Source: a virus
DNA length: 64,000 nt
Strand: one strand, 5' to 3'
IMG/VR virus record: IMGVR_UViG_3300006316_000001
Coordinates: 42,816 to 106,815 of that record
The translations under genes and the position numbers were made by a program. This document shows, one piece after another, positions 14,212 through 62,611 of this stretch; position 1 is the stretch's first letter; each line of letters starts with the position of its first letter. A model generated the notes under the pieces. The model had not been told where the DNA came from and did not search any database. It saw nothing but the letters and a program-made list of their open reading frames with translations.

Positions 14212-14232
14212 TCTCACTTCATAGTGAAACAC

Positions 14233-14256
14233 GGGAGACCTCGGTCTCCCATTTTT
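14233..14256 (+). terminator. Rho-independent terminator after MCP
   Basis: GGGAGACC-TC-GGTCTCCC followed by ATTTTT. Confidence 0.7.
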
Positions 14257-14275
14257 AATCTAACATTCTCGGAGA

Positions 14276-14611: not shown

Positions 14612-14636
14612 TTGAGTTTCCTGATTACAAAAAATG

Positions 14637-14674
14637 AAGCCCACTGGTCGCTTAGAGCACTAGTGGGCTTTTTT
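14637..14674 (+). terminator. Rho-independent terminator
   Basis: AAGCCCACTGGT...ACTAGTGGGCTT followed by T run. Confidence 0.75.
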
Positions 14675-14689
14675 GTTTAGGGGGTTCTG

Positions 14690-15251
14690 ATGAGAACAAA
14701 AATAATTTCTGTGGATATGTCGGAAGACATAGTAGGCACAGATGAAGCTATGCAGTCATTCTCGAATTGAGGATGACTACGACATTGAGCTTGTTCAAAT
14801 CCAAGTTGCTGCTGCGACTGATCTGGTTTCAAAATGGTTGAATCGGAAGTTGTTCCCTACTGATATGGTGGGTTCTATACCAACATACCGCAAGAAGATT
14901 AATCTTCCTTATCCTCCAATACATTCCGTTTCGAAGGTCACTATTGAGGATGACGATGGGAATGAGATGACACTCACAGAAGGCGTTGATTATGTATTCG
15001 ACGACATCAGTGAACAAGTTATTTTCCGAGTGATTCCCCCACAGAATACCCGCAATAACGTCAAGGTGCATTTCTCATGCGGCTACCAAACCGCTGAAGA
15101 AGTTCCTCAAGCTATTAGGCATGCTATCAAACAGACATTCGCCACATTGTACGAGAATCGTGAAGATACCGTTATTGGTGCGTCTGTGAATGAAGTGCCA
15201 CTCAAGACTCAACGTCTGATTGGTGCGTATCGTATTAAGGCGATCTCATAA
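14690..15251 (+). CDS. Head-tail connector (gp6-like); reading frame split by an apparent 1-nt insertion near 14753
   Basis: AGGGGG RBS plus ATG 14690 gives MRTKIIS...IVGTDEAM; the +1 frame gives SHSRIEDDYD...LPYPPI.SV...VPQAIRHAI...LYENRE. Confidence 0.8.
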
Positions 15252-15583
15252 TGGCTGTTCGTGCAGGGAGACTGCGCCATAGATTAGAATTGTGGAAGTT
15301 GGCTGGGACAAAAGATAAGTTCGGCTCAATCACCAATGAGAAGGTGCGGGTTGGTACATATTGGTGTAACATTGAAAACACCAAGAATGAGACTGTTGGG
15401 ACTGACGTAAGGCAGAACCAGAATAGTATCTCATTCATAACCAGATACAATCGAACATTGGAAACTCCGGACAATAACATGTACGTGGTATTCAAGGGCG
15501 TTGAGTATGACATTAATAGTGTCCTCAATCCAAGATTCTTGAATGAGCGTTTGGTTATAGAATGTGTAGCTAGAGGTAACTGA
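15251..15583 (+). CDS. Head closure / head-tail adaptor (SPP1 gp16-like)
   Basis: RAGRLRHRL.L...D.FG, ITRY, YDINSV. Confidence 0.88.
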   Translation: MAVRAGRLRHRLELWKLAGTKDKFGSITNEKVRVGTYWCNIENTKNETVGTDVRQNQNSISFITRYNRTLETPDNNMYVVFKGVEYDINSVLNPRFLNERLVIECVARGN

Positions 15584-15584
15584 T

Positions 15585-16208
15585 ATGCCTTTTGAAGTCA
15601 CGACGTCAGCGATTGGAATCAAAGATACGAACAAAGCCCTAGAGAACATGGCTGATGAACGCGGAAAGAAATGGAAGCGTGATGCATTCATGAAATCAGG
15701 TTTCGAATCATTCCAACACGCAGTTCGAAAATCGCGCGCTAATGCCCCTGTTGGTGAAACTGGCCTCACTAAGAGAAGCATCACATCAACGCGTGGGTAT
15801 TATAACAAAAGAATTCGAACAACATCTTCTGGAAAGATAACCAAGCGCACAAGGAATGAATATTCAATTTCCACAACCCTTAAGAATTCTTTTAATGCGA
15901 AAGCGCCTAAGAATCGAAAGGGGCAAGCGGTCAGATATCCATTCATGAATGAAGTTGGCGTTCCGGCTCAAACGTATACCCGTATATCCAAAAACGGAAT
16001 GCTTCATTCAGTTACCCGAAAAGCTTCCCGAAACCCTTTGTTATTTCAACATAGGGCGTTGGGCACAACAGCAAATAAAGTAGTTAGTACTTGGAATCGA
16101 AAGTTCTCATTCTACCTAGATTTATATGCAAAATCGACCTATGCTACTTTGAGGGGTGCACACAGTGCATTCATTCGAACTGGTGGTGTTGGTTCTAAAT
16201 GGAAATAG
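15585..16208 (+). CDS. Neck/tail component (HK97 gp10-like)
   Basis: A.APVGETGLTKRSI, YPFMNEVG; position after head closure gene. Confidence 0.7.
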   Translation: MPFEVTTSAIGIKDTNKALENMADERGKKWKRDAFMKSGFESFQHAVRKSRANAPVGETGLTKRSITSTRGYYNKRIRTTSSGKITKRTRNEYSISTTLKNSFNAKAPKNRKGQAVRYPFMNEVGVPAQTYTRISKNGMLHSVTRKASRNPLLFQHRALGTTANKVVSTWNRKFSFYLDLYAKSTYATLRGAHSAFIRTGGVGSKWK

Positions 16209-16212
16209 ACAT

Positions 16213-16596
16213 ATGGCATTGACATTGATACATGATAAGTTTAAAGTGCTTATTGATGGAATTACGGGAGGTGATGCATATCCTGTATTCATCCCTGAAG
16301 AAGCTTCATTTCCGGCATATATGTACTCGTTGGAAACGCTATCCCGCGATATCGAGAGTAACCTTCGTGATACCACAGTATCAGCTCACGTTTTTGGTGT
16401 ACATGTTGTCGATAAGACATTCGCTGGTTGTCATGACCGAACGCAAAAACTTTTAGACGGCTTGGATCAGTACACTGAAGGATCTTCTGGATCTCTTTTG
16501 CTGGTTCTTGTTGAGGATGCTCAAGACGGGTTTGACCCTGATCTTGATGCATACACAAAGACACTCGTAGTTTCAGTACGAGTCAAGGAGATTTAA
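16213..16596 (+). CDS. Tail terminator protein
   Basis: YPVFIPEEASFPAYMY motif; immediately precedes the tail tube genes. Confidence 0.75.
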   Translation: MALTLIHDKFKVLIDGITGGDAYPVFIPEEASFPAYMYSLETLSRDIESNLRDTTVSAHVFGVHVVDKTFAGCHDRTQKLLDGLDQYTEGSSGSLLLVLVEDAQDGFDPDLDAYTKTLVVSVRVKEI

Positions 16597-45853: not shown

Positions 45854-47359
45854 TTACATCTCCATGATTTCTTTTAGTTCGCGGCTGGATTCTTCTTGAG
45901 CGATCATTTCTTCTAGGGTGTTAGCCTTATCTTTGTCAAAACGAATCCTAACGACACGCGCAAGGAACAGTGATTGCTTTTCACTACCCTCAGTGATTGT
46001 GCGGGCGTTATATTCACCCTCAACAATTGCACCGATGTACTTGTTCGGGTCGAACTTCTCATCGTCTTCAACTGATGACTGCGTCATGTTATCAGCGTTG
46101 TCCTGAATGAACACCTTCTTATACCCGCGCATTTCATCAGTTAGACCTGAGCCGATACCGGAAGCAACCATGCCACATTCAGACTCAATGTTGAACCCAC
46201 CAATGCAGTTCTCATACTTTGAACCTTTCTTGCCAGGATACCAGCTAACGATACGGAATTCCGCAGGGTGAATTTCTTTGAACTTGTATTGTGAAGTGGA
46301 TCTGCAATCTTCCCAATAGCCATTACCGTCTTTGACGATAGTGCCTTCTTCTTTACGTGCAAGCATTTCAGCATAGTGAATTTTCGCTTCAGCTAGGCTG
46401 CTGATCTTACGACATTCAGTCAACTTAATACGCTTGTGGTGACCAGAAGCATCGAACATGTCATCGTCATCTTCACCAATACGACCGTCAAGGCAACGTA
46501 ACTCTTCCCAACGCTCACTATATGTCTTCTTGGTGATACCTTCGCGCTTCTCAAACTCAGCGCGATCAATGATATCCCAGACAACAAGAATAACGCGGTC
46601 TGCTTCTTCTGAGCCGATTGTGCCTGAAGATGCTTTGTTAATCACACCATTACCAGTCTGGCGTGCTGCGATTATACCGTTAGCGTCAATCACAACCAGT
46701 TCACCATCAAGGACGACATCACCACAAGATTCGGTGTATTTGCGGGCTGCGTTGGCTAATGATTGTAAACCGTGGTAGGATTTGCCGTTACGGGAACGCA
46801 ATTCAATACCCTCAGTGTAACATTTGATTAGACAACGTGCGCCATCAGACTTCAATTGGCTGTATGCATTAGACCAATCAATGTTCTTGTTGATAGCCGC
46901 AGCGTTGTATGGGGAACAAAGCATACAAGGGAAGTCGGGCACAAAATCAACACCATATACCTTACGGAAAGTGTTGATTGTCGCGCCACACTTGAAGTCA
47001 CGAGCAACGATCATATCAAGCATGGCTGCATCATCTTCTGGCAATCCTGATTTGATCTGTGCCAAATGTAACTTATCCGCGTTGGATGCTGAACCCTTTG
47101 TATCAAGATACATTAGCTTCTCAATAGCATCACTCATGGTACTTTCGCGAGTTTCTTCGGTATCACCGAAAAGAAGATCAATAGGATTTGGTGGTGGAAG
47201 ATCTTCAATCTTACTTAGGTTGTATGAGATGAGTTGATTGTACGTCAATGCAACACACTCACGCAGAAACTCATTATCGGCATGCTGCTCAATGATTGCA
47301 GTCTTGGCCTTTGTACCCTTTGCTTCACGAAGTTGTTGAATAATTTTATTCGGATGCAT
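45854..47359 (-). CDS. ATP-dependent DNA ligase (T4 gp30-like)
   Basis: Motif I QLKSDGAR, SRNGK, VLDGEL, VWDI, EGTIVK, YKFKE, SLFL.R...IR.DK. Confidence 0.95.
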   Translation of the reverse strand: MHPNKIIQQLREAKGTKAKTAIIEQHADNEFLRECVALTYNQLISYNLSKIEDLPPPNPIDLLFGDTEETRESTMSDAIEKLMYLDTKGSASNADKLHLAQIKSGLPEDDAAMLDMIVARDFKCGATINTFRKVYGVDFVPDFPCMLCSPYNAAAINKNIDWSNAYSQLKSDGARCLIKCYTEGIELRSRNGKSYHGLQSLANAARKYTESCGDVVLDGELVVIDANGIIAARQTGNGVINKASSGTIGSEEADRVILVVWDIIDRAEFEKREGITKKTYSERWEELRCLDGRIGEDDDDMFDASGHHKRIKLTECRKISSLAEAKIHYAEMLARKEEGTIVKDGNGYWEDCRSTSQYKFKEIHPAEFRIVSWYPGKKGSKYENCIGGFNIESECGMVASGIGSGLTDEMRGYKKVFIQDNADNMTQSSVEDDEKFDPNKYIGAIVEGEYNARTITEGSEKQSLFLARVVRIRFDKDKANTLEEMIAQEESSRELKEIMEM

Positions 47360-47812: not shown

Positions 47813-47887
47813 GGGGAAGTGCTAACCCTTAGCACTTTACCCCGTAAATATCATTATACTCTAATTTTACTAGAAGTAAAGCTTTTT
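47813..47887 (-). promoter_or_regulatory. Early promoter cassette copy 4
   Basis: -35 47876-47881, -10 47853-47858, leader hairpin. Confidence 0.85.
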
Positions 47888-48545
47888 AAGAAGTTATGGA
47901 ATCTAGATACTCAGCTAACCGAAGGTGTGTGTTCTGCATCATAAGAACGTCCAGCGCAATATCATGATCTTCACGGTGTTTTATTACACAATCTGGCCAT
48001 ACGAATGAATCATCATACCCGTTTGGTGTGTGATCAGGATTCCATATTGTTGTTATCGCGTCAATTTCAGTACGGATATCGCGAATGTTCCACCAAGGGA
48101 ATGGTATTTCCCACCTGAAGTATTTGTAGATATTTTCTAACAGAACGATATCAAACTGTGGACCACGCGCCCAGATACGGTCACCATTGGCATTGGGTTG
48201 GTATCCCATATCATCCAGATATTTCTGAATTCTTGGACCCATTAATGAAAGGTCAATATCTTCTGGGCTCGGGTCAATAACCATCGAACGGGCGTGAGCC
48301 TGATCAGGATTACTCCACCAATCAACTGTGCTCTGGTCCCAAGTTCGGTTGTATTTATTGAACTGCGTCTTCAAGTCAAACTTTAGACGGAGAGCATCAC
48401 CAACCAATTCTTCGAATGACTTCATCTCAGATGGATCAAATACCAAGATTGCTAGTGATGGTGTTGCCGTATCGGGATTGCGTTGAGCATTACCCACAGT
48501 CTCGAAATCGAGAATGATTTGTTTAGGAGAGTTTGAATTTGTCAT
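47886..48545 (-). CDS. DEDDh 3'-5' exonuclease (T4 DexA-like)
   Basis: IILDFET, TVDWW, WARGPQFD, RDIRT, H...HDIALD. Confidence 0.88.
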   Translation of the reverse strand: MTNSNSPKQIILDFETVGNAQRNPDTATPSLAILVFDPSEMKSFEELVGDALRLKFDLKTQFNKYNRTWDQSTVDWWSNPDQAHARSMVIDPSPEDIDLSLMGPRIQKYLDDMGYQPNANGDRIWARGPQFDIVLLENIYKYFRWEIPFPWWNIRDIRTEIDAITTIWNPDHTPNGYDDSFVWPDCVIKHREDHDIALDVLMMQNTHLRLAEYLDSITS

Positions 48546-49259: not shown

Positions 49260-49757
49260 TTAGAATTCATTGAACATTTCGCATAGAAGCTCGTTAACTT
49301 TCTCTTTACTCATCTCAGCAGCCCAACCTGCAGCCTGAACAGCATCATCAACAGACCGACCACAACAACACCAACCAGCGGAAGAGGCGGAACGAGCAGC
49401 CCTCCGCGCACCATCATCCCAACCAGCAGCCCAGCTAGAAGAATCAGCATTAAGAGCGACATCACGAGCGCATTCGGCTTTTGGGTCATTAAGAAAATTG
49501 ACAATTGAGTCATACTTATCTGTGAGTGGCATTATTTTCTCAATGTTAATTAGGGCGCAATCGCATGCAAATCTTGCGATTCTATTTGTTGGTATGGTTT
49601 TACTAGCTAACCACAATAGATCGTCGTATGTATTTGCCCCTCCAACCAATGTTTCTACTTCCACACTCTCTTCAGTGTTGTTGGTTTGTTCTATGAAACG
49701 ATTAAGACCTAATTCGCAAGCATCCATTTCAATCAACTCAGATTTAGAAATTTTCAT
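49260..49757 (-). CDS. Hypothetical protein, tandem paralog B
   Basis: N-terminal ~70 aa very similar to 49794-50339; same EMFNEF end. Confidence 0.75.
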   Translation of the reverse strand: MKISKSELIEMDACELGLNRFIEQTNNTEESVEVETLVGGANTYDDLLWLASKTIPTNRIARFACDCALINIEKIMPLTDKYDSIVNFLNDPKAECARDVALNADSSSWAAGWDDGARRAARSASSAGWCCCGRSVDDAVQAAGWAAEMSKEKVNELLCEMFNEF

Positions 49758-49793
49758 AATAGAATTCCATGTGTTAGGTGAAGTGTTAAGTAT

Positions 49794-50339
49794 TTAGAAT
49801 TCATTGAACATTTCGCGTAGTAGGTCGTCTATGCAACTTGACCCACAAACATGTTGAGCTGACCGAGCAACATTAATGGCATGAATCTTCGCGCTTCCAG
49901 AATATTTTGCGGAATATGCAGCAAAGGCGAACGAAACTGCAGTATTGGCGCAGGATGCACGAGAGTAGCGAGCCTTTTCGATAAAACTAAAAGACTTTTC
50001 CCACAATTCATCCCGAATGTCTTTATTTATATCATCAAAATCGTCAGCAATATCATCACTTGAAGCGTTATTCAAAAAATCAACAATCAAATCGTAGTTG
50101 TCTGTGTGGGGCTTGATATGATGTGCGACAATCAATGCGCAATCGTATGCAAATCTTACGATTCGGCGTTTCGGAATCTTCTTACTCGCTAACCACAATA
50201 GATCTTCGTGCGTGTTCAGTCCACCAACCAATGAGGTCACTTCCACACTGTCTTCGGTGTTGTTGGTTTGTTCTATGAAGCGTTTAAGACCTAATTCACA
50301 AGCATCCATTTCAATTAGCTCAGATTTAGAAATTTTCAT
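49794..50339 (-). CDS. Hypothetical protein, tandem paralog A
   Basis: MKISKSELIEMDACELGL.RFIEQTNNTE...DLLWLASK...RFA.DCALI. Confidence 0.75.
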   Translation of the reverse strand: MKISKSELIEMDACELGLKRFIEQTNNTEDSVEVTSLVGGLNTHEDLLWLASKKIPKRRIVRFAYDCALIVAHHIKPHTDNYDLIVDFLNNASSDDIADDFDDINKDIRDELWEKSFSFIEKARYSRASCANTAVSFAFAAYSAKYSGSAKIHAINVARSAQHVCGSSCIDDLLREMFNEF

Positions 50340-50452
50340 AATAAATAGCCTTTTATTGGGAAGGGCTAACCGTTAACCCTATAACAACCATTATACTCTA
50401 ATTAGCCGAGAAGTAAAGCTTTTTAGCTAAATTTGAATGTAAAAAAGGCTCC
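50333..50452 (-). promoter_or_regulatory. Early promoter cassette copy 5 (left 120-bp repeat bounding the modification locus)
   Basis: -35 50413-50418, -10 50390-50395; 9 mismatches against 59749-59868 by hand alignment. Confidence 0.85.
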
Positions 50453-50467
50453 GCTAGGGAGCCTTTT
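50441..50467. terminator. Terminator closing the AADT operon
   Basis: AAAAAAGGCTCC-GCTAG-GGAGCCTTTT. Confidence 0.75.
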
Positions 50468-50468
50468 G

Positions 50469-51551
50469 TTAACCTAATAGGTCGAATATGTTGGGTTCTG
50501 GTTCGGTCTGCTGTTCAAAAATGTGACCGCGCCAATCAATCTCACCCCGCTCTAAAAAGAACGACATCGCTTCTTTGTTGATCGGGTCTTTCCGCCCACG
50601 TTCGCCACCTTCTTTGCGAGTTTCTGACGATTGTAGTAATGAGCCATGGAGCATTTCTTTCCTTGCTTCCCAAAGTAGTGACCACTCAATTCCGTCCCAT
50701 CCCTTGGACTGAACGTCGGTGATGTCCAAAAATTGTCGGTCAAGGTAATATCCTGGATACCTACCATCTCTATTACGGAAAAATTTCTTGAAAGCGCAAC
50801 AGACAGTTTCGAACCCAAGACGCTCGACTGACAATCCAAAACGACAATTCGTCTCTTTAATGATTCCATTTGCCTCTTCCTCTAGCCATTCAAGCTCTTC
50901 TTTTGTGAATTTGTGGCGGATCTTTTTACCATCCACCTTACGTTTACACCATTCATCTTTACCTAGTCCGCGACACAATCCGTCACGGTGCGACTCAGAA
51001 CCACCATCACCCAACAACAAACTTGGGATGTCAATCGGGATTCCACATACATCTCGTAGAGCCTGCATATAAAACCAGCATTTGTAGCGACCAAAGTCGT
51101 GGAACTTGATGACCTCATCCCATATGCGTTTGAAGTTCGCCTCACGATCCTCACCACACATACTCATGAACCAAGCATTCTGAGTGCCGTCACCAATGGT
51201 TTCGCGATAGGATTCAAACATCGCTGGCAACTTACCCTTACTGTAACGACAATCCACCTGATAGCGCAACTTGTGGTAATTATCGTCGTTCCACTTAGTT
51301 AAGCGGTCAAGGTCAACCAAGTCATAGTCGGGAAACTCGTTCGCCATCACATACGCTTGTGGGAGTTGATAGCTATTGGCGTACAACCAGACGTACCATA
51401 GACGTTGTTCTTTGTTGTACTCTTGGCGATTGAACATGTAGTTCATCATCCAAATAGCAGGGTCAACATCGCCTCGTAAATACTGCCAAGCTGTGTATTG
51501 GATTAAAAGCTCGCGCCTGTTTTTGTAGTCTGGAGTGCGATAATCAATCAA
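50469..51551 (-). CDS. Amino acid:DNA transferase (aGPT-PPlase clade 2), thymidine hypermodification
   Basis: DYR....RR......AW.....D.DPA.W..NY...R...N.EQRLW..WLY.N.Y...NEFPD...LRYQ.D....KG.LP.MF.SY...FGRY..WFY.Q.L...SHR.GL...ET..C.FKK.FR....RY.GYYLDRQ. Confidence 0.82.
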   Translation of the reverse strand: MIDYRTPDYKNRRELLIQYTAWQYLRGDVDPAIWMMNYMFNRQEYNKEQRLWYVWLYANSYQLPQAYVMANEFPDYDLVDLDRLTKWNDDNYHKLRYQVDCRYSKGKLPAMFESYRETIGDGTQNAWFMSMCGEDREANFKRIWDEVIKFHDFGRYKCWFYMQALRDVCGIPIDIPSLLLGDGGSESHRDGLCRGLGKDEWCKRKVDGKKIRHKFTKEELEWLEEEANGIIKETNCRFGLSVERLGFETVCCAFKKFFRNRDGRYPGYYLDRQFLDITDVQSKGWDGIEWSLLWEARKEMLHGSLLQSSETRKEGGERGRKDPINKEAMSFFLERGEIDWRGHIFEQQTEPEPNIFDLLG

Positions 51552-51982
51552 AATATGTACCCCTTGTTCATCTTAGCCAACTCAGTGATGGCAGCATGAT
51601 ACCCTTCACGTTCTTTATTCCATAATGCGCGAGTGAAACGTTGAGCGACCCACGGCTCAAGTTCTTTATGGTGACGGTTTAATAAAATCTTGTCTAACCA
51701 ATTCATATCACACAACATATCATAGTTCAGGTGAATCAAGAACGATGGGTTCTCTTTGATGAACTGCTTACATGAAGGTGGTAGCTTGACGTCAGCAACC
51801 TTGATTTGGTCATCAATATCACCAACAATCTTCTCAATGATGGCTTGTGTTAGAAAAAGACCGCTACTGTGGATGTAGTGGTCGTTACCAATCTTCTCAA
51901 CGATAGCATCAAGGAAGTTGCCCATGCGTGATTTGAGCTGTTGGATTTGCGGGCTATCTTTGTGAGCAATATGTTTATTCAT
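51548..51982 (-). CDS. Hypothetical protein in modification operon
   Basis: AAGGAG RBS, start MNKHIAHK; overlaps AADT start (ATGA). Confidence 0.65.
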   Translation of the reverse strand: MNKHIAHKDSPQIQQLKSRMGNFLDAIVEKIGNDHYIHSSGLFLTQAIIEKIVGDIDDQIKVADVKLPPSCKQFIKENPSFLIHLNYDMLCDMNWLDKILLNRHHKELEPWVAQRFTRALWNKEREGYHAAITELAKMNKGYIF

Positions 51983-51983
51983 C

Positions 51984-52757
51984 TTAGTCTCCTTTGAAGT
52001 CTTTGATGGTTGTTGGTTTGATTTGGATGTCAATCTGAAGGTCTTGTCCCAAGCCATCCGGATATCTCTTTTTGGCGAAGACTCCTGGATCAGCACGACT
52101 ATATGTACCCATACCCAAAGTTCGACTTTCATAAATGACGCCATTAATGCAATCATCAATCTGGGACTTTTCTATACCTGCGCGAACTAAAGCATCTTGA
52201 GTTGATGAGAAAATTATACCCGTCCCCAAATCAGCGTGCCACAATGGGCGTTGACCGTTGCGGAATCCCTTGATTGTACAATTGGTGGTGTCTAGTTCAA
52301 GAACCGCCATGCTAGCATCTGGGAAATACTTCAGAGGATGGATACCCTGATCAAGTGCTGCTAGAACAAGACTCGAATCATTACCATTTTTGGCAATTAG
52401 CCCGTACTCACTTTCCCAAGTACTCGGATCAGCTTGTGTAATCACACCGTTATGGGCGATAGCTCGTTTCTCACCGAATAATGGTTGGTTGTGCTCAAGG
52501 TCACTGGTTGAGTATCTAGCGTGAGCGATAAGGACAATCTCGTTGTAATCTTCGTCAACAGCATCACTCAAGTTAAACTCACTCAGTAGAGCATCAACTG
52601 GTACTGGCTTGCTGTAACCTTGAATCTTATCATCTTTAATGTACGCCACGCCTGAAGCATGACGACCGCGTATTTGTAAATTTCTAAATACACGTTCACA
52701 CAACTCAAGGTCTTCGCTGGTTGGGTGAACAAAATGCATACCGAATACACCACACAT
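51984..52757 (-). CDS. Class II (Ntn) glutamine amidotransferase domain protein
   Basis: N-terminal MCGVFG, RGRHASG, HARYSTS, NQP, HNGVI, NDS, RN..RPL. Confidence 0.9.
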   Translation of the reverse strand: MCGVFGMHFVHPTSEDLELCERVFRNLQIRGRHASGVAYIKDDKIQGYSKPVPVDALLSEFNLSDAVDEDYNEIVLIAHARYSTSDLEHNQPLFGEKRAIAHNGVITQADPSTWESEYGLIAKNGNDSSLVLAALDQGIHPLKYFPDASMAVLELDTTNCTIKGFRNGQRPLWHADLGTGIIFSSTQDALVRAGIEKSQIDDCINGVIYESRTLGMGTYSRADPGVFAKKRYPDGLGQDLQIDIQIKPTTIKDFKGD

Positions 52758-52767
52758 AATAATGCTC

Positions 52768-53205
52768 CTATTTGATGTCTAAATCATTAATGAACCACGT
52801 ACAATCAGGATTATACTCACCCACACCACTTGTGGACAAGAACTCTTCCTTTGTCTTTCCATAATACGGATACCCAGAACACATTCCAGGACGGTTTTCG
52901 TAGTTTGTGCACACCCCATTAACTAGATGCTTACATAGGAAGTGGCTCGCTTTCTGTGCCCATTTGCGTAGACCTTTGTCTTTGTATTTGAACATCTGTG
53001 GATTGATCTTCTTGGCACGACGCTTCTTTATTGGAATCAACATGTCAGCGACTTTCTGACGTTCATCACTGTAGTCAGACAAATCCCAATCAGCTCTATT
53101 ATCAGGGAATTTGCGAACAAAATTTTTGTAGCCTTGAGTGGCGACAATACGAAGGACTTTACAACAGTCATAGCAGCGCTCGCCATTAATCATACAATGT
53201 TCCAT
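52768..53205 (-). CDS. YkgJ-family Cys-cluster (Fe-S/Zn) protein
   Basis: C......CYDCC...CKHL..GVCTNYENRPGMCSGYP...C. Confidence 0.82.
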   Translation of the reverse strand: MEHCMINGERCYDCCKVLRIVATQGYKNFVRKFPDNRADWDLSDYSDERQKVADMLIPIKKRRAKKINPQMFKYKDKGLRKWAQKASHFLCKHLVNGVCTNYENRPGMCSGYPYYGKTKEEFLSTSGVGEYNPDCTWFINDLDIK

Positions 53206-53240
53206 TATTTACGTACTCTCTTTTTGTTATTTAGAAATAT

Positions 53241-53300
53241 GTAACCATTTACCCCTACAACAATCATTATACTCTAATTTTACGAGAAGTAAAGCTTTTT
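53241..53300 (-). promoter_or_regulatory. Early promoter cassette copy 6
   Basis: -35 53289-53294, -10 53266-53271; leader hairpin degenerate. Confidence 0.82.
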
Positions 53301-53316
53301 AGTTAAATTTGAATGT

Positions 53317-53340
53317 AAAAAAGGCTCCCGAAGGAGCCTA
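53317..53340 (-). terminator. UUCG-loop terminator after GNAT
   Basis: Minus strand AGGCTCC-TTCG-GGAGCC-TTTTTT. Confidence 0.8.
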
Positions 53341-53343
53341 TTT

Positions 53344-53946
53344 TTATGAGAAGATATCTTTCTTTAGGTGAGTCGCCAGCGAACTGTAATTGTGGTCGTC
53401 GCCAGTTGACGATTCTGGATGAACGCGCCTTTGTATTAGATCTATGACTGACTGATTATCATGTCCCAATAAGACACTCATGTCGGGACTATAGCTCAAA
53501 TAGTCATCTAAGGTTTTGAGTAGAGGCATGTTACAGTAATAGTCTCCACTTCTCGTGATTCCCCAGTATGTGAATCCCAATCTATTGTAGAATTTTATTG
53601 CGGAAGGAGCACAATTCATTCTGATTCTAGAAAGTTCGCATTCATTACCTTCTTGTATTGCAACTTCCATAATTTTTCTGGCGTACCCAAATTTCCGATA
53701 TTTCTTTGGCGTCAAAAGATTTATTATGGACAAATACCCGTCTTTGGTTTTGTTTAAGAAAAGAACGGTTACGATTTTACCATCAACTTCCAGACACAAA
53801 ACAGGCTTGGCTTTCCAATCATAGAATCTGTTATGGAATTCGATTGAATTTTCTGAGAATCTCAAGGTTTCCTTATCATCTAAATCTATCGTATTATGGA
53901 AGTATTCTCTGTATGAGAATTCACTATCAATATTTATAATGTTCAT
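53344..53946 (-). CDS. GNAT-family acyltransferase
   Basis: Acyl-CoA motif LLTPKKYRKFGYARKIM and SAIKFYNRLGF; start MNIINID after AAGGA RBS. Confidence 0.85.
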   Translation of the reverse strand: MNIINIDSEFSYREYFHNTIDLDDKETLRFSENSIEFHNRFYDWKAKPVLCLEVDGKIVTVLFLNKTKDGYLSIINLLTPKKYRKFGYARKIMEVAIQEGNECELSRIRMNCAPSAIKFYNRLGFTYWGITRSGDYYCNMPLLKTLDDYLSYSPDMSVLLGHDNQSVIDLIQRRVHPESSTGDDHNYSSLATHLKKDIFS

Positions 53947-53960
53947 ATCCACTTTCCTTA

Positions 53961-53984
53961 TAAAAATGGCTCCCGAAGGAGCCT
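53961..53984 (-). terminator. UUCG-loop hairpin/terminator between BCCT and GNAT
   Basis: Minus strand AGGCTCCTTCGGGAGCC-ATTTTT. Confidence 0.65.
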
Positions 53985-53993
53985 TAATAGGAA

Positions 53994-55322
53994 TTACTTT
54001 ACCATCTTGAACGCTTGAACTACCATGTTTAGGTATAGCGCTGCTATTGGTAACCCTAGGATTGCAATCACAATCTTCAGAGCATTCCAAGCTTCAGGTC
54101 CAAACATTTGGAAGCTAATAGCCATGAACGCTACAAATACAACCCAGCAACCTGAACTTGTTTTACCTTCGCTCATCTCATCCAAAGCAATCGAACCAGA
54201 GTCAACACAAGTAACCATCCACAAACACATTGCCACTAACAGTACACCACCAGCAATCTCACCATACGGGATAACCTGCTCAAGCAAGACGAACGGATCA
54301 TTAACTTCAAGAATCTCAGCAGCCGAACCTAGTACACCGAAGAAGAAACAAGTGATAACCATCGGAATAACACCAACACCAACAATCACTTCACGAACAG
54401 TACGCCCTTGGGAAATTGTGGTAAAGAACGCCACGCTGAACGGTAGGAAAGTGAACCACCAAGCCGCATAGAAGTATGGCCACCAGAATAACCAGCCATT
54501 GTGATCTTCGCTAGCACCAGCACCAGTATCGAAGCCATACTCAAATAGATTACTCAACATCATCCCGAAGCTTTGGAATGTGTACTTTAGTGTATCCATA
54601 CCAACAAACCAAGCCACCGCTGCTGTGATGATTACACCTGTAACCATTGCGCCATTACTCAACCATTTCACCCCACGCAGAACACCTGACTTTGCTGACG
54701 CTAGGCTGATAATCGCAAACACCACCATCAGTATACTCTGATCAACATCAATGCCGAATGTTCCCTTAAGACCCGATTGAACGCCAGAAGCTGCTATTGT
54801 GAATGACGACACGATTGCGATTACCGTAGTTACACACATGAGAACCATAGAGGCTGATGTTGCCTTTTTGCCCATGTTAGGAGTGAATACAGCTTTACCC
54901 TTTGACCAGAATATACCGCCAGCCGCAGTCGCCACAGCAAACATGATATAAGCTGGACCCCAGTTATACATGGTGCGAGCAATAGCATCAGTGGTTTCGA
55001 AACCAGCCTCAACGTGATAGCTTGGTTCAGATACGCCCCAAACGAACAGTGATGAACCAATTACCGTTGATACGCACATACCGTACCAGCTGAGGTTACC
55101 AATTCGCTTCTCTCCTGGAAGCTTGATATTGGCAAATTTGGAGTTGAACGCTAGTACCGCTGCGATAAATACCGAAGCCATAATTGTTGCGTTCATCATC
55201 CAACCGAAGTCACCGAGGACTCCCTTTCGGATTGAACCAAGGATGTTACTGACATCTTCAGTAAAGAACGATGACGCCAGACCGAGTGTTAGTAGAATTA
55301 AGATTGTGTATAGGCTCTTCAT
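53994..55322 (-). CDS. BCCT-family (betaine/carnitine/choline) transporter, compact and divergent
   Basis: About 12 hydrophobic segments; FGW, SKFANIKL, SW..M, WGVSEP.YH, T.YNWG, SGV.RGVKWLSN, W...W.YFYAAWW..F.PF...F...ISQGRTVRE, VT..DS. Confidence 0.88.
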   Translation of the reverse strand: MKSLYTILILLTLGLASSFFTEDVSNILGSIRKGVLGDFGWMMNATIMASVFIAAVLAFNSKFANIKLPGEKRIGNLSWYGMCVSTVIGSSLFVWGVSEPSYHVEAGFETTDAIARTMYNWGPAYIMFAVATAAGGIFWSKGKAVFTPNMGKKATSASMVLMCVTTVIAIVSSFTIAASGVQSGLKGTFGIDVDQSILMVVFAIISLASAKSGVLRGVKWLSNGAMVTGVIITAAVAWFVGMDTLKYTFQSFGMMLSNLFEYGFDTGAGASEDHNGWLFWWPYFYAAWWFTFLPFSVAFFTTISQGRTVREVIVGVGVIPMVITCFFFGVLGSAAEILEVNDPFVLLEQVIPYGEIAGGVLLVAMCLWMVTCVDSGSIALDEMSEGKTSSGCWVVFVAFMAISFQMFGPEAWNALKIVIAILGLPIAALYLNMVVQAFKMVK

Positions 55323-55382
55323 GTTAATTTCCTTATTCATTGCGCCAGTTGTAGTGGCCAAGACCACGTAAAAATGTATGGA

Positions 55383-56381
55383 TTATCGTAACCATCCGTA
55401 TGTTTCCTTAATTTCTTTGAGTAGTTCTTTAGTGATTTCAGAACCGTTCGCATAGTTGTATTTGCGGAAGTTGTCCTCCATCACCTGATCATTATGAGGC
55501 ATTGGGGGAAAGTCCCAGTCATCACGCATTGCAATAACGTCGTGAATTGTTTTGTGTGGCTCATTTAGCGCAGTCTCAATACACATTGCTGTGAATAGAG
55601 CCACATTTGCCATTTGTTTACCTTGGCGAGTGCCCCAATTACTACGGTTCTCGATAGTTGGGTGTTTACCGCCCTTACCGCGAAGTCGTGTAGTGTTCAA
55701 TCCTGGACGTTGCATCATCCAAGAAGGTTTATTGTCCTTTGTCTGATTCGCTTGCCCGTCAATTACCCCGCGTGCCGTGTCTGCAGCTAATGCACGCTCC
55801 AAATTAGCATCACGGAGAACTGAGCAACAAGCGCCCATCATGTATTTGAACAATTTAGGGTCACAAGTTTCCTTGTCTATATTGAACGCTGGAGGATTCG
55901 TCTTAGTGATATCTTCCCAGTTATTGGTAGCCCACCAGAACAGTCGCTTCATGCCATCGCGGTCTTCAGTTAGACCTTCAACACCAACGTGAACGTGGCC
56001 ACCCGAACGTCCCGAAACTGAAATCTCATGACCGATATGAGCTTCTTGCATAGCAATCATTTGGTCCCACGCATCGCCAAGTTCTTCGGGTGAGTTGTAC
56101 ACTGCTGTGTTAACTTCACCACCGCGATTAGAGATAGGAAGATCACCTTCGTATTGATCTTTGAGAGGCCAAGAAGCTTTACCGTCGCGATTACCACATT
56201 CACTCTCAGAGTAAGACCATGACCAACCTTCAGGAAGTGGACCACTTTTATCGACATCATTAACTTCAGCATCGATACCGAAAGTGAATGTCTTAATGTC
56301 GTATTTCGCTTTAACCTGCATCCATGGCTCGTTTTGAACTAGTTCCAATGGAGTTGGTTCTACATCACCGAATATGTTCAT
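55383..56381 (-). CDS. Putative amidoligase (COOH-NH2 ligase, glutamine synthetase/GCS-like), paralog 2
   Basis: TFGIDAE, GGEVNT, SGGHVHVG, RPGLN, TIENR. Confidence 0.78.
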   Translation of the reverse strand: MNIFGDVEPTPLELVQNEPWMQVKAKYDIKTFTFGIDAEVNDVDKSGPLPEGWSWSYSESECGNRDGKASWPLKDQYEGDLPISNRGGEVNTAVYNSPEELGDAWDQMIAMQEAHIGHEISVSGRSGGHVHVGVEGLTEDRDGMKRLFWWATNNWEDITKTNPPAFNIDKETCDPKLFKYMMGACCSVLRDANLERALAADTARGVIDGQANQTKDNKPSWMMQRPGLNTTRLRGKGGKHPTIENRSNWGTRQGKQMANVALFTAMCIETALNEPHKTIHDVIAMRDDWDFPPMPHNDQVMEDNFRKYNYANGSEITKELLKEIKETYGWLR

Positions 56382-56392
56382 GCTCTATACCC

Positions 56393-57382
56393 CTAAATGT
56401 TGTTTGGTTCTTGACGTACACGGTATGTGTTTTTGTCGTCAGCCTTCAGCTCGCCAATACGGTTCTTTCTATCAATCAAGGATTCTACATACCCGACCAT
56501 GATGTCGCGTTCATATTTGATCTTAGGAAATTTCCATTCAGGATGTCTGTCTAGAATAGACTGAACTGATTCACCAGTATTAAGCGCAGCATTAACGAAC
56601 TCTTCACAGAACTCAAAACAGCAACGTAGTTCATCGCGATCAAGAGAACCACGGAATGCGCGGAACTCTAACGTACCCATTCGCCCAAGCGGATAAAGAT
56701 TGACAGCCGCTCTTGACATTGGCATTCCCTTTCGTGAACCGCTACTTTCGTGACGACTTTCGCCCATCTTATGTGCGTCAATCAACTCAAATAGGTTGGT
56801 TACTGACGGAAGACGCTCACGATACCAATCAGGGATTTTAGTGGTTGACACATAATCTAAGTATTTATGACAGCCCCATGTGGATCCTGGAAGCTTAATA
56901 TCTTCGTAGACAGCAAATACAGGTTCGCCGAACAGATCAGTCTCACCAGTATCATATTTGTAGTCTTCATCAGTTAGACGGAAACATGCATTAATGTATG
57001 CTTGGCGATTATCTTCATTAGCAGAGTAGATTGCTAATCTTCGCAGAGCATCACCATCTTCAGTGAGTCCTGGAATATGCATATGAATGTGGGTTACTTG
57101 GTAGTGGGACATTGTCGGGTGTGGGAAGAAATCTATGATTTCCATGATGCGATCAAGTTGGTCTGGCCAACCTACCGTTGGAACCGTGTTAATTTCGCCA
57201 CCCATATGGCAATCTTCACCAGATGGGTCAGCAGCGATTCCGCGAAACTCACCCAACATATTGATGATATCATGCTCACACCATTCCCACTATCCGAGAT
57301 GCTCAGGAATTTCGGTTCGCTTATCAACGTCACCTAGTTCCAACTCAGTACCGTATTGGAATGTTTCTTTAGGGTAATTCAT
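56393..57382 (-). CDS. Putative amidoligase paralog 1; in-frame TAG at codon 31 (57290-57292)
   Basis: AAGGA RBS plus ATG 57382: MNYPKETFQYGTELELGDVDKRTEIPEHLG*WEWCEHDIIN, continuing in frame into ORF 57259 (GGEINT, HIHMH, RAAVN, TLEFRAFRG). Confidence 0.78.
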
Positions 57383-57403
57383 ATTATTTCCTTCTGAAAT
57401 AAA

Positions 57404-57478
57404 GGGGAAGCGTCAACCTTTAACACTTTACCCCATAACAACCATTATACTCTTATTTTACGAGAAGTAAAGCTTTTT
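57404..57478 (-). promoter_or_regulatory. Early promoter cassette copy 7
   Basis: -35 57467-57472, -10 57444-57449, leader hairpin with G-U pairs. Confidence 0.85.
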
Positions 57479-59324
57479 ATAGATAATTATTGATGAACCA
57501 TTGTACGGTGGTTGGAATATCCATCGAATGATCCACCCAAACCGCCCTAACGCCACCATAACCGTTAGTGCCTTCGATGCAACGCTCTGCCTTCACTCGC
57601 GTTTCTTCCCATTTGGACTCAACGTTCTTGGTGTTCGGTGTTTTACCTTGAGCTGCGTTGCGTTTCACTAGACGTTCCATGCACACTTCTAGAGGTGTAT
57701 CCATGAATAGCATATGAGGCGTCATACCCATTTCTTTAAAACGATCAATGTGCCATCGACTAGAACTCAGTACCACACCTTCCATCATGATATGATAATC
57801 GTCGAATTCCGGTCGCCCCATGATGATATCCAACGCTTGTTCCATTGTAGCTCTAACCAATGTATCGCATCCAGCAATGTTGGTTCCAGGAGTGTAGTCC
57901 CCAATAAGGATGATTCCAAGATTGGGTAGTACCGTGGCGAATCCAGATTTCTTGGTTGTGGCTTGGAAACCTTTAGACATATTCCCAGACAACCAAGCGA
58001 ACTCTGTTGAGAGAAGGTACGCATCAGTGTCACGTTCAACGAGTCCCTTGGGGATGGTAGATTTTCCTGAACCATTCGTGCCAAGTAGCTGATACATGGT
58101 ACGGCTCTCACGGTGCCCATACTTAGAACCTGTGTACTCTGGTTTTGGGTCGAAGAGAGTGTCTTCATAAAGGTCGGTTCTTCGTACTTCTGAATCAACA
58201 CGTTTGCGCTCTTTATGGAGTTCAAGTTGCTCATCATCTGTGATTCGCTTACCCATGTAGGGGATAGTGCGGTTTGGATCATTCGGGGCTTCATTTTTTA
58301 CCTTCTTGGGTCTTTTCATATCTTCACCTGTTCCATCAAAACTAACACGCGCACGCGGCTTCTTACCTTCTTTTACTTGTTCATTACAACGAACGTACTT
58401 ACTGAATTCACAGAAGCAGTTCTCTAATGACATCACATTCATTGTGCGATCTTTTGGGTCAAGGTCGGTCATTAAGTTCTCAGTGAACGATGTTCCGAAT
58501 ACTTCATCTTGATTATCACGCAACCAGAATAATAGCTCTTCATCAGTCAAACCATCAGGGTCTGTGAATAGCATACTTAGACCGAGTGAACATCCTGGAC
58601 CAGCGATAGTGAATTCGTTCTCGCTGAACTTATAGTCTGGGCAGTACGTGAAGTCAACAAACATCTGATAGCTCAAAAATTCGCCAATTCCAGGAACATC
58701 CATCAGGATATTACAAACCTCGCGCGGTGATTCTGCTGAGTGGATATCGTCGAATAGACCCTTACCGATCATCCAATCAATTAGAGCCATTGGTCGAGCC
58801 GGAATGTACACCTCACCCGTTAGGCGACCGGATGCAGCCTTCATACCACCAGTATTGAATGCTGATGTGAAGAACACGTAATCTGAGTCACTGGTTTGTT
58901 TAGCCTGTAGAATCTTTTTGCGATCCATCATCCACCCACCATACTCATTCTGAACCCCAGAAAATGAAGCAGGTAGGTTAATCAACTCACACGTTTCCCA
59001 TTTATTGTACAATCGGAATAGGACTAGGTTGATGATGCGCGTGGTCAAACTCAAATCTGTGCGATTACAGATATGTTCGATAGCCCACTTGGTGGCACGA
59101 TCATGCTCGCGTCTAACGTTAGTGAACTTCACATTCTGTAGAATTGTATTGGATGTCCAAGGCGCGGGAAGCTTCATAACATCTTTCTTCAAATGGATGT
59201 TGTAACGCTCGGTTATCCATTCCACCAATAGACCCAGCTTAACTGGGTCCATGGGTGGTTTTGCGTAATGGATCTTACCTTGACTGACGCCACAATATGG
59301 GACATCATGAGGTCTATTTAACAT
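57477..59324 (-). CDS. 5-hydroxymethyluracil DNA kinase (aGPT-PPlase clade 1) fused to a P-loop nucleotide kinase
   Basis: N-terminal WI.ER..I..KK.....PWT...IL...KFTNVRREHDR, LFRLYN, G.G.FLSYQ..VD, GPG...GL, ENCFCEFSKY; C-terminal GTNGSGKST, G.Y.....AGCDT, MEG, DTPLEVC.ER...RN. Confidence 0.85.
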   Translation of the reverse strand: MLNRPHDVPYCGVSQGKIHYAKPPMDPVKLGLLVEWITERYNIHLKKDVMKLPAPWTSNTILQNVKFTNVRREHDRATKWAIEHICNRTDLSLTTRIINLVLFRLYNKWETCELINLPASFSGVQNEYGGWMMDRKKILQAKQTSDSDYVFFTSAFNTGGMKAASGRLTGEVYIPARPMALIDWMIGKGLFDDIHSAESPREVCNILMDVPGIGEFLSYQMFVDFTYCPDYKFSENEFTIAGPGCSLGLSMLFTDPDGLTDEELLFWLRDNQDEVFGTSFTENLMTDLDPKDRTMNVMSLENCFCEFSKYVRCNEQVKEGKKPRARVSFDGTGEDMKRPKKVKNEAPNDPNRTIPYMGKRITDDEQLELHKERKRVDSEVRRTDLYEDTLFDPKPEYTGSKYGHRESRTMYQLLGTNGSGKSTIPKGLVERDTDAYLLSTEFAWLSGNMSKGFQATTKKSGFATVLPNLGIILIGDYTPGTNIAGCDTLVRATMEQALDIIMGRPEFDDYHIMMEGVVLSSSRWHIDRFKEMGMTPHMLFMDTPLEVCMERLVKRNAAQGKTPNTKNVESKWEETRVKAERCIEGTNGYGGVRAVWVDHSMDIPTTVQWFINNYL

Positions 59325-59577
59325 AGAGGATTTCCTTATATGTTGTTCCGTTAGGAGTTACGGTTCGGGTGTGAACCAACTTACCTGAAACGAAAATTTG
59401 TTCTTCGAACATGTATTTATTTAGGTGTAGTTGTTTAACCTCAACCACAAGGTTAGGATCAAACATCAAATCTTCGTGACGCTCAAGAGTGCTGTTCTTT
59501 TCCGTCATAATAAGTAATTCTGAATCAGTTTCTTGGTTTGTGCATGTTTTGTAATCGGGGATGTTATTGATGCTCAT
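59314..59577 (-). CDS. Hypothetical protein
   Basis: ORF overlapping the kinase gene start. Confidence 0.55.
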   Translation of the reverse strand: MSINNIPDYKTCTNQETDSELLIMTEKNSTLERHEDLMFDPNLVVEVKQLHLNKYMFEEQIFVSGKLVHTRTVTPNGTTYKEILYVK

Positions 59578-59578
59578 T

Positions 59579-59755
59579 TTAGTATCCTGCCAATTCGTCT
59601 AATGCGTCACAAATATCTTCAATCTTTTCAGTAAGCTCATTCATGTATCGCATACGCTGATTAACATCATGACCGTCACAATCGTTATCAATGTAGCGGT
59701 TGCGTTCTTCGTGAGCTTCATCAAGTTCTTTTTGTAAATCAGGAATGGTTTTCAT
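59579..59755 (-). CDS. Small coiled-coil hypothetical protein (58 aa; not in ORF track)
   Basis: MKTIPDLQKELDEAHEERNRY...LAGY*; first ORF after promoter 8. Confidence 0.65.
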   Translation of the reverse strand: MKTIPDLQKELDEAHEERNRYIDNDCDGHDVNQRMRYMNELTEKIEDICDALDELAGY

Positions 59756-59868
59756 AATAAATAGCCTTTTAATGGTAAGGGTTAACCGTTAACCCTATAA
59801 CAACCATTATACTCTTATTTTACGAGAAGTAAAGCTTTTTAGCTAAATTTGAATGCAAAAAAGGTTCC
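59749..59868 (-). promoter_or_regulatory. Early promoter cassette copy 8 (right 120-bp repeat bounding the modification locus)
   Basis: -35 59829-59834, -10 59806-59811, perfect leader hairpin AGGGTTAA-CGG-TTAACCCT. Confidence 0.85.
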
Positions 59869-59880
59869 CCATGGGGAACC
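59857..59880 (-). terminator. Terminator after SleB hydrolase
   Basis: Minus strand GGTTCCCC-AT-GGGGAACC-TTTTTT. Confidence 0.8.
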
Positions 59881-61683: not shown

Positions 61684-62367
61684 CTATAATAAGATCAATT
61701 TACCATCGGATTCAGACAACACACCATCAACATGAACATATGTGACGTTGCGTCTCATCATATCGGATGTGTTTTCTGAGGTACGCCCGTATGGTACACC
61801 ATAAACCACACGTGAAACGCCTGAGTTTGCTATGTTTTTGGAACAGTCAGCGCAAGGTTGGTGAGTACAATATAATGTACCGCCTTGGATATCATCACGA
61901 TTCGAATGCAGCAACGCATTCATCTCAGCGTGTATTTCATGCTCAGAAGACCATTTGTGATGCTTATCGTACAATTCCTTCAGTTTGTTTGTGCCCAATA
62001 TCTCGCAACCAAGTCTAATTTCTTGCTTGATTGCCTCAACCTCTTCTTCGAAGTTGGGGAAGCGGTCACAACAATTACTATCACCTGCGGGTGTGCCATT
62101 GTAACCTGACGCTACAATACGACCTTGACTGTTAACGATGATGCACCCAACCTGATGCTTAACGCACTTGCTTTGGAGCGACTCAATGTAAGCCTGTCTC
62201 AGCCGTGTTTCGTCAAATTTCTCTATTTTGGTAATTTTAATTCTGGGTAAAGTACCAATATCTTCCATAGATTTTAAGCTCGCTTCCCATTTAACATCGT
62301 TAATATCTGGATTTGGAAAACATTCATCACACATTTCAGGGCTGGACCGCCCATGCTCGCACGCCAT
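61684..62367 (-). CDS. dCMP deaminase
   Basis: SKC...QVGC, GYNGTP.G..NC, HAEMNAL, LYCTHQPCADC. Confidence 0.93.
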   Translation of the reverse strand: MACEHGRSSPEMCDECFPNPDINDVKWEASLKSMEDIGTLPRIKITKIEKFDETRLRQAYIESLQSKCVKHQVGCIIVNSQGRIVASGYNGTPAGDSNCCDRFPNFEEEVEAIKQEIRLGCEILGTNKLKELYDKHHKWSSEHEIHAEMNALLHSNRDDIQGGTLYCTHQPCADCSKNIANSGVSRVVYGVPYGRTSENTSDMMRRNVTYVHVDGVLSESDGKLILL

Positions 62368-62368
62368 A

Positions 62369-62611
62369 CTACTTACCTCGTAAAAATCGGTTAAGTTCTG
62401 CCGCACCACCAATCATCTCATCATCGATGAATATCATTGGGAATGTTTTGTGGTTGTGCGTTTCCGCCAACTTTCTGAACTCTTCTTCCGTATAGTCCTT
62501 GCCTAGAGACTTGTAGGTGAAGTTCATTTGGTGTCGTTTTAGCATTGATTGTGCGCTAACGCAGAACTGACAGAATTCTTTACCTAAAACTGTGATGTTT
62601 GGATTTGCCAT
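62369..62611 (-). CDS. Glutaredoxin
   Basis: CQFC active site, TFPMIFID...IGG. Confidence 0.92.
   Translation of the reverse strand: MANPNITVLGKEFCQFCVSAQSMLKRHQMNFTYKSLGKDYTEEEFRKLAETHNHKTFPMIFIDDEMIGGAAELNRFLRGK

Follow-up and report, generated by a model that had tools for sequence, protein, structure and literature searches.

Thymidine hypermodification has been worked out in the phages ViI, M6, PaMx11, SP10, and PhiW-14 (PMC5889632, PMC8989533) and in the diaminopropane pathway of SH-Ab 15599 (PMC13458397), and the modified bases named in PMC8989533 and PMC13458397 stem from a small set of tailoring enzymes. Lee et al. 2021 (PMC8989533) further described metagenomic contigs in which 5-HMUDK and aGPT-Pplase2 genes are accompanied by genes of unknown function encoding amidoligase and glutaminotransferase domains. 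These clusters, none of which has a known product, were pointed out in 2021 as holding a store of unknown chemistry (PMC8989533). Here we describe a complete, compact example of such an amidoligase/amidotransferase-bearing cluster, located at positions 50469 to 59755 of a 64,000-nucleotide stretch of viral DNA (the window), which comprises bases 42816 to 106815 of the 106,815-bp IMG/VR virus record IMGVR_UViG_3300006316_000001, rated complete by CheckV. It is very probably a thymidine hypermodification locus and would form the post-replicative half of the pathway in a phage of about 107 kb. The genome shares with the pathways named above a hydroxymethylase-type homolog of thymidylate synthase (TS), a DNA kinase for 5-hydroxymethyl-2'-deoxyuridine (5-hmdU), and a clade 2 transferase. 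Its tailoring set is different, consisting of amide-forming enzymes, an ammonia supplier, an acetyltransferase, and an importer, so that the modified base of this phage is probably one that nobody has measured.

An initial annotation, made before any database search, had called this gene set uncharacterized. That holds for the tailoring set and for the product, which is probably undescribed. It does not hold for the co-association of amidoligase and amidotransferase genes, which was already known from the 2021 report (PMC8989533), or for the overall strategy, which is well established. What is new is the full anatomy of one amidoligase-type pathway, fusion evidence for a unit of glutamine amidotransferase (GATase) and amidoligase working beside the kinase, a second and very divergent amidoligase, and the recurrence of a BCCT importer.

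Pathway genes and genomic setting

All long open reading frames (ORFs) between 50469 and 59833 lie on the minus strand. Four near-identical promoter cassettes (TTTACT-16-TATAAT) on that strand, starting at 59833, 57471, 53293, and 50417, divide the region into three operons, as the initial annotation had proposed, and the genes were found where it had placed them (Table 1). Operon A comprises a Cef-like ORF and the fused 5-hmdU DNA kinase; operon B comprises amidoligase 1 (amid1), amidoligase 2 (amid2), the BCCT transporter, and a GNAT protein; and operon C comprises a YkgJ-like protein, a class II GATase, a 144-aa orphan, and the amino acid:DNA transferase. The gene boundaries needed revision in part, the starts of the GNAT, orphan, and BCCT genes having been moved to those given in Table 1.

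The families proposed for the kinase and the transferase were borne out by profile searches, in which both scored above the Pfam cutoffs. The kinase matched HMUDK_hel (PF18723; 2.7e-65, 220.9 bits, cutoff 25) and HMUDK_HMUD1 (PF18748; 1.5e-17, 64.2 bits, cutoff 27), with a Walker A motif, GTNGSGKS, at residue 415. The transferase matched ADDT (PF18724; 7.7e-22, 78.6 bits, cutoff 26.2) over profile positions 9 to 230 of 232 and scored 79.3 bits in the genome-wide search. The reaction first ascribed to the kinase, pyrophosphorylation of 5-hmdU, must be corrected, as the kinase product is named as the monophosphate, 5-phosphomethyl-2'-deoxyuridine (5-PmdU) (PMC8989533).

The dCMP deaminase gene was located close to the locus as annotated, and the dUMP hydroxymethylase that the annotation had looked for elsewhere in the genome has a candidate in the TS homolog. 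In sequence this protein is closer to pyrimidine hydroxymethylases than to thymidylate synthases, matching a CMP hydroxymethylase in the Protein Data Bank (PDB) at 3.7e-18 versus a thymidylate synthase at 1.1e-3, and its phage matches include the TS homologs of SPO1 (gene 29), M6, and ViI-like phages. A dUTPase_2 gene and a dNMP-kinase-like gene flank it. Searches of the whole 106.8-kb genome gave no radical SAM, DAO, Orn/Arg decarboxylase, Pyridoxal_deC, or Aminotran_1_2 match, in agreement with the reported absence of a pyridoxal phosphate (PLP) decarboxylase, a radical SAM isomerase, and a flavin lyase.

The replisome is of the T4 type (PolB, gp32, gp45, gp59, RNase H, and UvsW). The nearest cultured PolB sequences, at 60 to 63% identity, are those of the 99- to 107-kb Vibrio phages henriette 12B8, 2.058.O, and V6Aob, and the window record is a probable Vibrio phage. 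These three phages gave no ADDT match, with the window genome as a positive control, and no HMUDK_hel match in a search that had no positive control, and the cultured relatives carry a canonical ThyA (237 to 250 bits versus 41 bits for the window TS homolog). The locus therefore accompanies the replacement of ThyA by a hydroxymethylase in this lineage, and the cultured relatives, being Vibrio phages without the locus, provide a natural comparison. We also observed that PolB is annotated in two pieces in these phages (L007 to L009), with one or two small ORFs between the pieces, and as a single 885-aa ORF in the window genome (G000:C1:13188-15845).

The amidoligases and a recurrent module

Direct matches to Amidoligase_2 (PF12224) above the cutoff of 22 bits were absent for both putative amidoligases, amid1 reaching 13.9 bits (E value of 0.049) and amid2 giving no match. 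The annotation of two amidoligases was nevertheless upheld by three other results. The proteins are whole-length paralogs (BLASTP, 9e-12), PF12224 was matched by 28 of the 37 aligned homologs of amid2 (best, 3.7e-13), and the model of amid2 has a fold of the glutamine synthetase (GS)/glutamate-cysteine ligase (GCL) type. This AlphaFold (AF2) model, built from the homolog alignment, had a pLDDT (predicted local distance difference test) of 87.6, versus a useless 35.5 for a model built from the single sequence. In a VIA structural search against representatives, the top 19 chains (Z scores of 6.3 to 10.5) all belonged to GS, GCL, YbdK, PafA, or Dop, the next chain having a Z score of 4.7, and Foldseek returned the same families, weakly. 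The G-x-E-x-E, GGE, HxH, R, N, and TxExR motifs are invariant or nearly so in the family and are present in both proteins, with GIDAE, GGEVN, HVH, and TIENR as the catalytic motifs of amid2. Together, the motifs and the model support, for both proteins, a predicted ATP-dependent carboxylate-amine ligase fold with the matching catalytic apparatus. Other searches added little: amid2 and the amidoligase profile against PDB sequences, amid2 against phage records, and an IMG/VR scan with amid2 gave nothing useful, and amid1 found two distant matches only among phage records.

The carboxylate-amine ligase superfamily and Amidoligase_2 are reportedly the subject of work by Iyer et al. in 2009 (Mol Biosyst 5:1636), and we know of no PF12224 member with a known substrate. 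The two window proteins occupy very different places in this family. A query of 1.84 billion representatives with amid2 returned 52 relatives. Nearly every member of the family resembles amid1 (up to 6e-56) far more than it does amid2 (at best 1e-25), and amid1 is the mainstream type which elsewhere co-occurs with the GATase and transferase; close relatives of amid2 were found only within its own phage lineage. In the maximum-likelihood tree, amid1 fell inside a clade with 99/93 support and amid2 formed a lone long branch (2.14) outside it, and a recent tandem duplication of amid1 was therefore rejected as the origin of amid2.

The GATase matched GATase_6 (4e-6, 27.3 bits, cutoff 27), and its residues C2, R81, N103-G104, and D127 were invariant across 30 homologs. 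Similar stand-alone GATases of about 220 aa were found in at least 128 clusters. Two IMG/VR loci, L002 and L003, hold HMUDK_hel, dUTPase_2, 5'-nucleotidase, GATase, ADDT, amid1-type ligase, and hydroxymethylase genes in one array, and the window proteins matched their counterparts there at 1e-32 to 1e-82. Natural fusions were also found. In a GATase_6::Amidoligase_2 protein (P0006), the N-terminal GATase half matched the window GATase at 1.7e-47, and elsewhere Amidoligase_2 is fused to an HMUD2 kinase, in one arrangement with a GNAT domain in front (GNAT::Amidoligase_2::HMUD2). The arrays and the fusions together indicate that the GATase, transferase, and amid1, with the GNAT and the kinase, form a recurrent module. 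The initial annotation had the two ligases, the amidotransferase, the Cys-cluster protein, and the acyltransferase building the adduct jointly. By the sequence comparisons, this stands for the GATase, transferase, and amid1 as a conserved module; amid2, the BCCT, the YkgJ protein, and the orphan appear lineage specific, the YkgJ protein being in addition a generic Vibrio phage gene. IMG/VR scans with the transferase and with P0006 gave nothing useful, and a complex prediction for the GATase with the intact sister form of amid1 scored 0.01, which is no answer and evidence neither way. Separately, two amid1 homologs (P0007 and P0054) are fusions of Amidoligase_2 to a low-molecular-weight phosphatase, whose phosphatase domain could remove unused phosphate from 5-PmdU.

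A stepwise pathway can be proposed from these assignments, the fusions lending it a concrete and testable reaction order. By family, the dCMP deaminase would make dUMP and the TS homolog would convert it to 5-hmdUMP, while the dNMP-kinase-like protein and dUTPase_2 would shape the nucleotide pool, so that 5-hmdU would replace T in new DNA. Also by family, the fused kinase would then phosphorylate the hydroxymethyl group of 5-hmdU in DNA to give 5-PmdU (step 1), and the ADDT-family transferase would install an amino acid or amine in place of the phosphate (step 2), with Gly, Ser, Glu, putrescine, and diaminopropane among the candidate donors. In step 3, amid1 would phosphorylate a free carboxylate of the attached residue and the GATase would deliver glutamine-derived ammonia, yielding a carboxamide; this would be GS chemistry on a tethered residue, as suggested by the fold, catalytic residues, neighborhood, and GATase::amidoligase fusion. 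The GNAT may acylate a free amine (step 4), as the GNAT::amidoligase::kinase fusions found elsewhere hint. More speculatively, amid2 might form a second amide with a compound imported by the BCCT (step 5). The YkgJ protein and the orphan have no assignable step. The adduct may be peptide-like or amidated and may protect the DNA against restriction or CRISPR. We consider the pathway laid out in this way moderately probable as a whole. The participation of amid1 and the GATase in hypermodification is probable, and that of the BCCT and amid2 falls somewhat short of an even chance.

The transporter and the competing explanations

The BCCT gene shares an operon with amid2 and starts 60 nt behind it. 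Its product matched PF02028 (TC 2.A.15; 2.2e-53, 181.9 bits) over profile positions 4 to 482 of 485, that is, over its full length, and matched BetP structures at 1e-22. BCCT carriers usually transport betaine-, choline-, or methylamine-type cations. The window protein has no long terminal tails. Its Trp box in transmembrane helix 8 (TM8) reads FYAAWWFTFLPF versus FYWAWWISWSPF in BetP, so that, by what we take to be the BetP numbering, two of the three box tryptophans are kept and W377 is replaced by F. The glycine-rich TM3 motif reads STVIGSS versus AAGMGID in the aligned BetP entry, which is presumably a G153D variant of a wild-type AGMGIG. Within a collection of 5.8 billion clusters, no protein outside its own phage lineage exceeded 29% identity, and IMG/VR scans with a BCCT alignment and with a BCCT motif pattern gave nothing useful.

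The best relatives among phage records, at 28 to 30% identity, belong to the Escherichia phages vB_EcoM_IME392 (MH719082) and EP_H11 (OP688485). In IME392 the BCCT lies inside a 5-hmdU cluster (MH719082.1 28664-47767, locus 7055-16593) with the order methyltransferase, 302-aa protein, BCCT, PIG-L deacetylase, two unknowns, HMUDK_hel, P-loop kinase, TS-like hydroxymethylase, and YfbR nucleotidase. Both phage BCCTs are short and without regulatory tails, and they share departures from the glycine-rich and tryptophan motifs of the family, including ST..G.S in place of the former. Two 5-hmdU clusters that otherwise differ thus each contain a tail-less BCCT, and a literature search found no paper that connects carriers of this family with the hypermodification of phage DNA. 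In its specific form, the proposal that the BCCT imports an environmental compound, perhaps a betaine-, choline-, or methylamine-type cation, and that amid2 joins this compound through an amide bond to the thymine-tethered amino acid is rather improbable. If true, a virion DNA base would be built in part from an environmental solute, an importer would have been paired with a 5-hmdU cluster independently in two unrelated lineages (a Vibrio-type phage and the IME392 coliphages), and a transporter feeding such a pathway would be a new principle.

Several observations weigh against the stepwise pathway. The phage is known from its genes alone, with no cultured isolate known. The transferase shares only about 29% identity with the closest phage sequences, which are the transferases of ViI-like phages (Ackermannviridae), and neither it nor its profile matched a solved structure among PDB sequences. 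The window GNAT showed no detectable relation to the GNAT domain of the fusion in L002. Counterparts of amid2, the BCCT, the YkgJ protein, and the orphan were absent from L002 and L003, YkgJ homologs occur in many Vibrio phages, several of them beside the terminase gene, and a terminator-like hairpin follows the BCCT, which would be in keeping with insertion as a moron. Because enzymes of the GS family usually take free small molecules as substrates, the two ligases could do their work ahead of the transfer step. Finally, amid1 is interrupted in this record by an in-frame TAG at 57292-57290 (codon 31).

The missing counterparts, the spread of YkgJ relatives among Vibrio phages, and the hairpin would all suit a mosaic locus, in which only the kinase, transferase, GATase, amid1, and perhaps the GNAT make the base and the other four genes are unrelated early-gene morons, the BCCT, for example, importing osmolytes to maintain turgor in the infected marine cell. 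The repeated promoter cassettes could shuffle genes in this way, and the long branch of amid2, with no close relatives beyond its own lineage, points in the same direction. However, the BCCT recurs in the unrelated IME392 cluster with the same loss of tails and the same motif departures, amid2 retains all the catalytic residues of a family otherwise tied to such clusters, and all four proteins are intact in the sister assemblies, where the BCCT is 98.9 to 100% conserved. We regard a mosaic origin of the locus as unlikely.

It is likewise doubtful that the donor is made first, that is, that the amidoligases, GATase, GNAT, and BCCT build or import a free amine or amino acid amide (such as a gamma-glutamyl amide) which the transferase then places on 5-PmdU in one step, with little or no tailoring on DNA. 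The nearest folds (GS, GCL, gamma-glutamylmethylamide synthetase, and 1-naphthylamine GS) all act on free substrates, a transporter would fit a small-molecule supply line, and Pplase2 enzymes take varied donors, diamines included (PMC13458397). On the other hand, the fusions of amidoligases to the HMUD2 P-loop kinase and to the GNAT suggest action at DNA, PafA and Dop of the same fold group act on macromolecules, and in the characterized pathways tailoring comes after transfer (PMC8989533).

The TAG in amid1 bears on whether the pathway works in this phage at all. The conserved N terminus of amid1, including the putative metal-binding GxExE motif, lies upstream of the TAG, and the next in-frame ATG (57259) comes after the motif. 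The genome uses TAG as a regular stop codon, which ends 31 of 121 ORFs, amid1 itself among them, and the only tRNAs encoded are tRNA-Asn and tRNA-Met, with no suppressor tRNA. In two sister versions of amid1, on contigs of 114,070 bp and 14,062 bp in the protein-cluster table, the protein is an intact 329 aa with an AAG-type Lys at codon 31 and is otherwise 99.4 to 99.7% identical to that of this record. Programmed recoding or suppression of the TAG was rejected on these grounds. The stop sets this record apart by one base and is either erroneous or a rare null allele. That the amber truncates amid1 and leaves the phage with a simpler adduct or dependent on amid2 would follow from the ordinary use of TAG here and the loss of the GxExE motif, and yet such a broken pathway is very unlikely given the Lys in two independent sister assemblies, and a single-base assembly error or rare variant is as likely an account of a gene free of further defects. 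The closeness of the Cef-like ORF to the amber codon (T4 Cef being a modifier of suppressor tRNAs) looks coincidental.

Features of the locus and comparison with known systems

The coordinates of all features are collected in Table 1.

Table 1. Features of the putative hypermodification locus and related genes (window coordinates unless marked otherwise)
Feature	Coordinates	Strand	Remarks
Predicted dCMP deaminase	61684..62412	-	Would supply dUMP; PF00383, 2.3e-22
Operon A promoter cassette	59806..59833	-	TTTACT-16-TATAAT; preceded by terminator-like hairpin 59866-59878
87-aa ORF, weakly T4 Cef-like	59314..59577	-	First gene of operon A; overlaps kinase start
Predicted 5-hmdU DNA kinase, 615 aa	57477..59324	-	Helical domain (residues 32-318) fused to P-loop kinase (residues 408-578)
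Operon B promoter cassette	57444..57471	-	
Putative amidoligase 1, Amidoligase_2/GS-like, 329 codons	56393..57382	-	Starts at ATG 57382; interrupted by TAG in this record
Putative amidoligase 2, 332 aa	55383..56381	-	Divergent paralog with predicted GS/GCL-like carboxylate-amine ligase fold
BCCT-family transporter, 442 aa	53994..55322	-	Likeliest start ATG 55322 (ribosome-binding site AAGGAA); ORF open from GTG 55367
Terminator-like hairpin between BCCT and GNAT	53968..53983	-	
GNAT acyltransferase, 200 aa	53344..53946	-	Start ATG 53946, not the long TTG ORF
Terminator hairpin closing operon B	53322..53339	-	
Operon C promoter cassette	53266..53293	-	
YkgJ/CxxCxxCC cysteine-cluster protein, 145 aa	52768..53205	-	8 Cys
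Stand-alone class II (N-terminal nucleophile, Ntn) glutamine amidotransferase, 257 aa	51984..52757	-	N terminus MCGVFG
Orphan, 144 aa	51548..51982	-	Start ATG 51982; stop overlaps transferase start (TTGA)
Predicted amino acid:DNA transferase (ADDT/aGPT-Pplase clade 2), 360 aa	50469..51551	-	
Promoter cassette of the next operon	50390..50417	-	Marks downstream border of the locus
TS homolog, hydroxymethylase type	genome 7270-8394		41 bits on TS model

Of the smaller proteins, the GNAT matched its Pfam family at 2.4e-9 and had no useful match among phage records. The YkgJ-like protein matched CxxCxxCC (PF03692) at 3.2e-4 (21.8 bits, below the cutoff of 23) and PHROG 14785 at 2.4e-19, as well as phage genes annotated YkgJ. 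The orphan had no relatives outside its own lineage, and an Atlas search with it was empty; any role of these last two proteins in the pathway is suggested by their operon position only. The Cef-like ORF matched PF24050 at 4.9e-5, below the Pfam cutoff, and phrog_1354 at 3.8e-5.

Each promoter cassette consists of a terminator hairpin followed by AAAAAGCTTTACTTCTCGTAAAAT(T/A)AGAGTATAATG and then a leader. The 127-nt copies at 50333-50459 and 59749-59875 are 91% identical to each other. These two copies flank the 9.4-kb locus and share only 61 to 70% identity with the remaining copies, a pattern that would suit acquisition or deletion of the entire locus through recombination between cassettes. 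The locus is intact in at least three assemblies, all nine locus proteins being intact in the sister assemblies at 91 to 100% identity, and its DNA gave no match among 50,697 phage records. Just downstream, behind the promoter at 50417, two tandem paralogous genes (49260-50339; 165 and 181 aa) contain a 294-nt direct repeat of 77% identity and have no family match. The early operons that follow encode an Rv2179c-like 3'-5' exoribonuclease (47886-48545) and an ATP-dependent DNA ligase (45854-47359).

New DNA adducts are relevant to the evasion of restriction and CRISPR, to sequencing artifacts in viromes, and to enzymatic tools for derivatizing DNA, and the locus can be placed among known systems on several levels. 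At the level of the enzymes, the window ligases share with the GS/GCL/YbdK/PafA superfamily the fold (Z scores of up to 10.5 for the model) and the set of acidic, His, and Arg motifs, and the Pfam text for Amidoligase_2 (PF12224) mentions neighborhoods with a glutamine-amidotransferase-like protein. They differ in being about 330 aa long without an N-terminal beta-grasp domain and in a context of DNA modification rather than metabolism or pupylation.

At the level of gene clusters, the metagenomic loci L002 and L003 are alike in bringing together GATase, ADDT, amid1-type ligase, HMUDK_hel, hydroxymethylase, and dUTPase_2 genes, as the window genome does. Their amidoligase is fused to, or adjoins, the GNAT and HMUD2 kinase, whereas the P-loop of the window kinase is fused to the helical domain and the window adds amid2, the BCCT, the YkgJ protein, and the orphan. 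The IME392/EP_H11 cluster resembles the window in its tail-less BCCT of about 460 aa beside HMUDK_hel, a P-loop kinase, and a TS-like hydroxymethylase; it gave no ADDT, Amidoligase_2, or GATase match, and in their stead it encodes a methyltransferase, a PIG-L deacetylase, and a YfbR nucleotidase.

At the level of the pathway, the likeness to ViI, M6, PaMx11, SP10, PhiW-14, and SH-Ab 15599 extends to an accessory dCMP deaminase and dimeric dUTPase and to the position of the modification genes among early and replication genes, and a GNAT is present in PaMx11 as in the window. In contrast to these pathways, with their radical SAM isomerase, PLP decarboxylase, or flavin lyase, the window genome has two Amidoligase_2 proteins, a stand-alone Ntn amidotransferase, a BCCT transporter, a YkgJ protein, and an orphan in their place.

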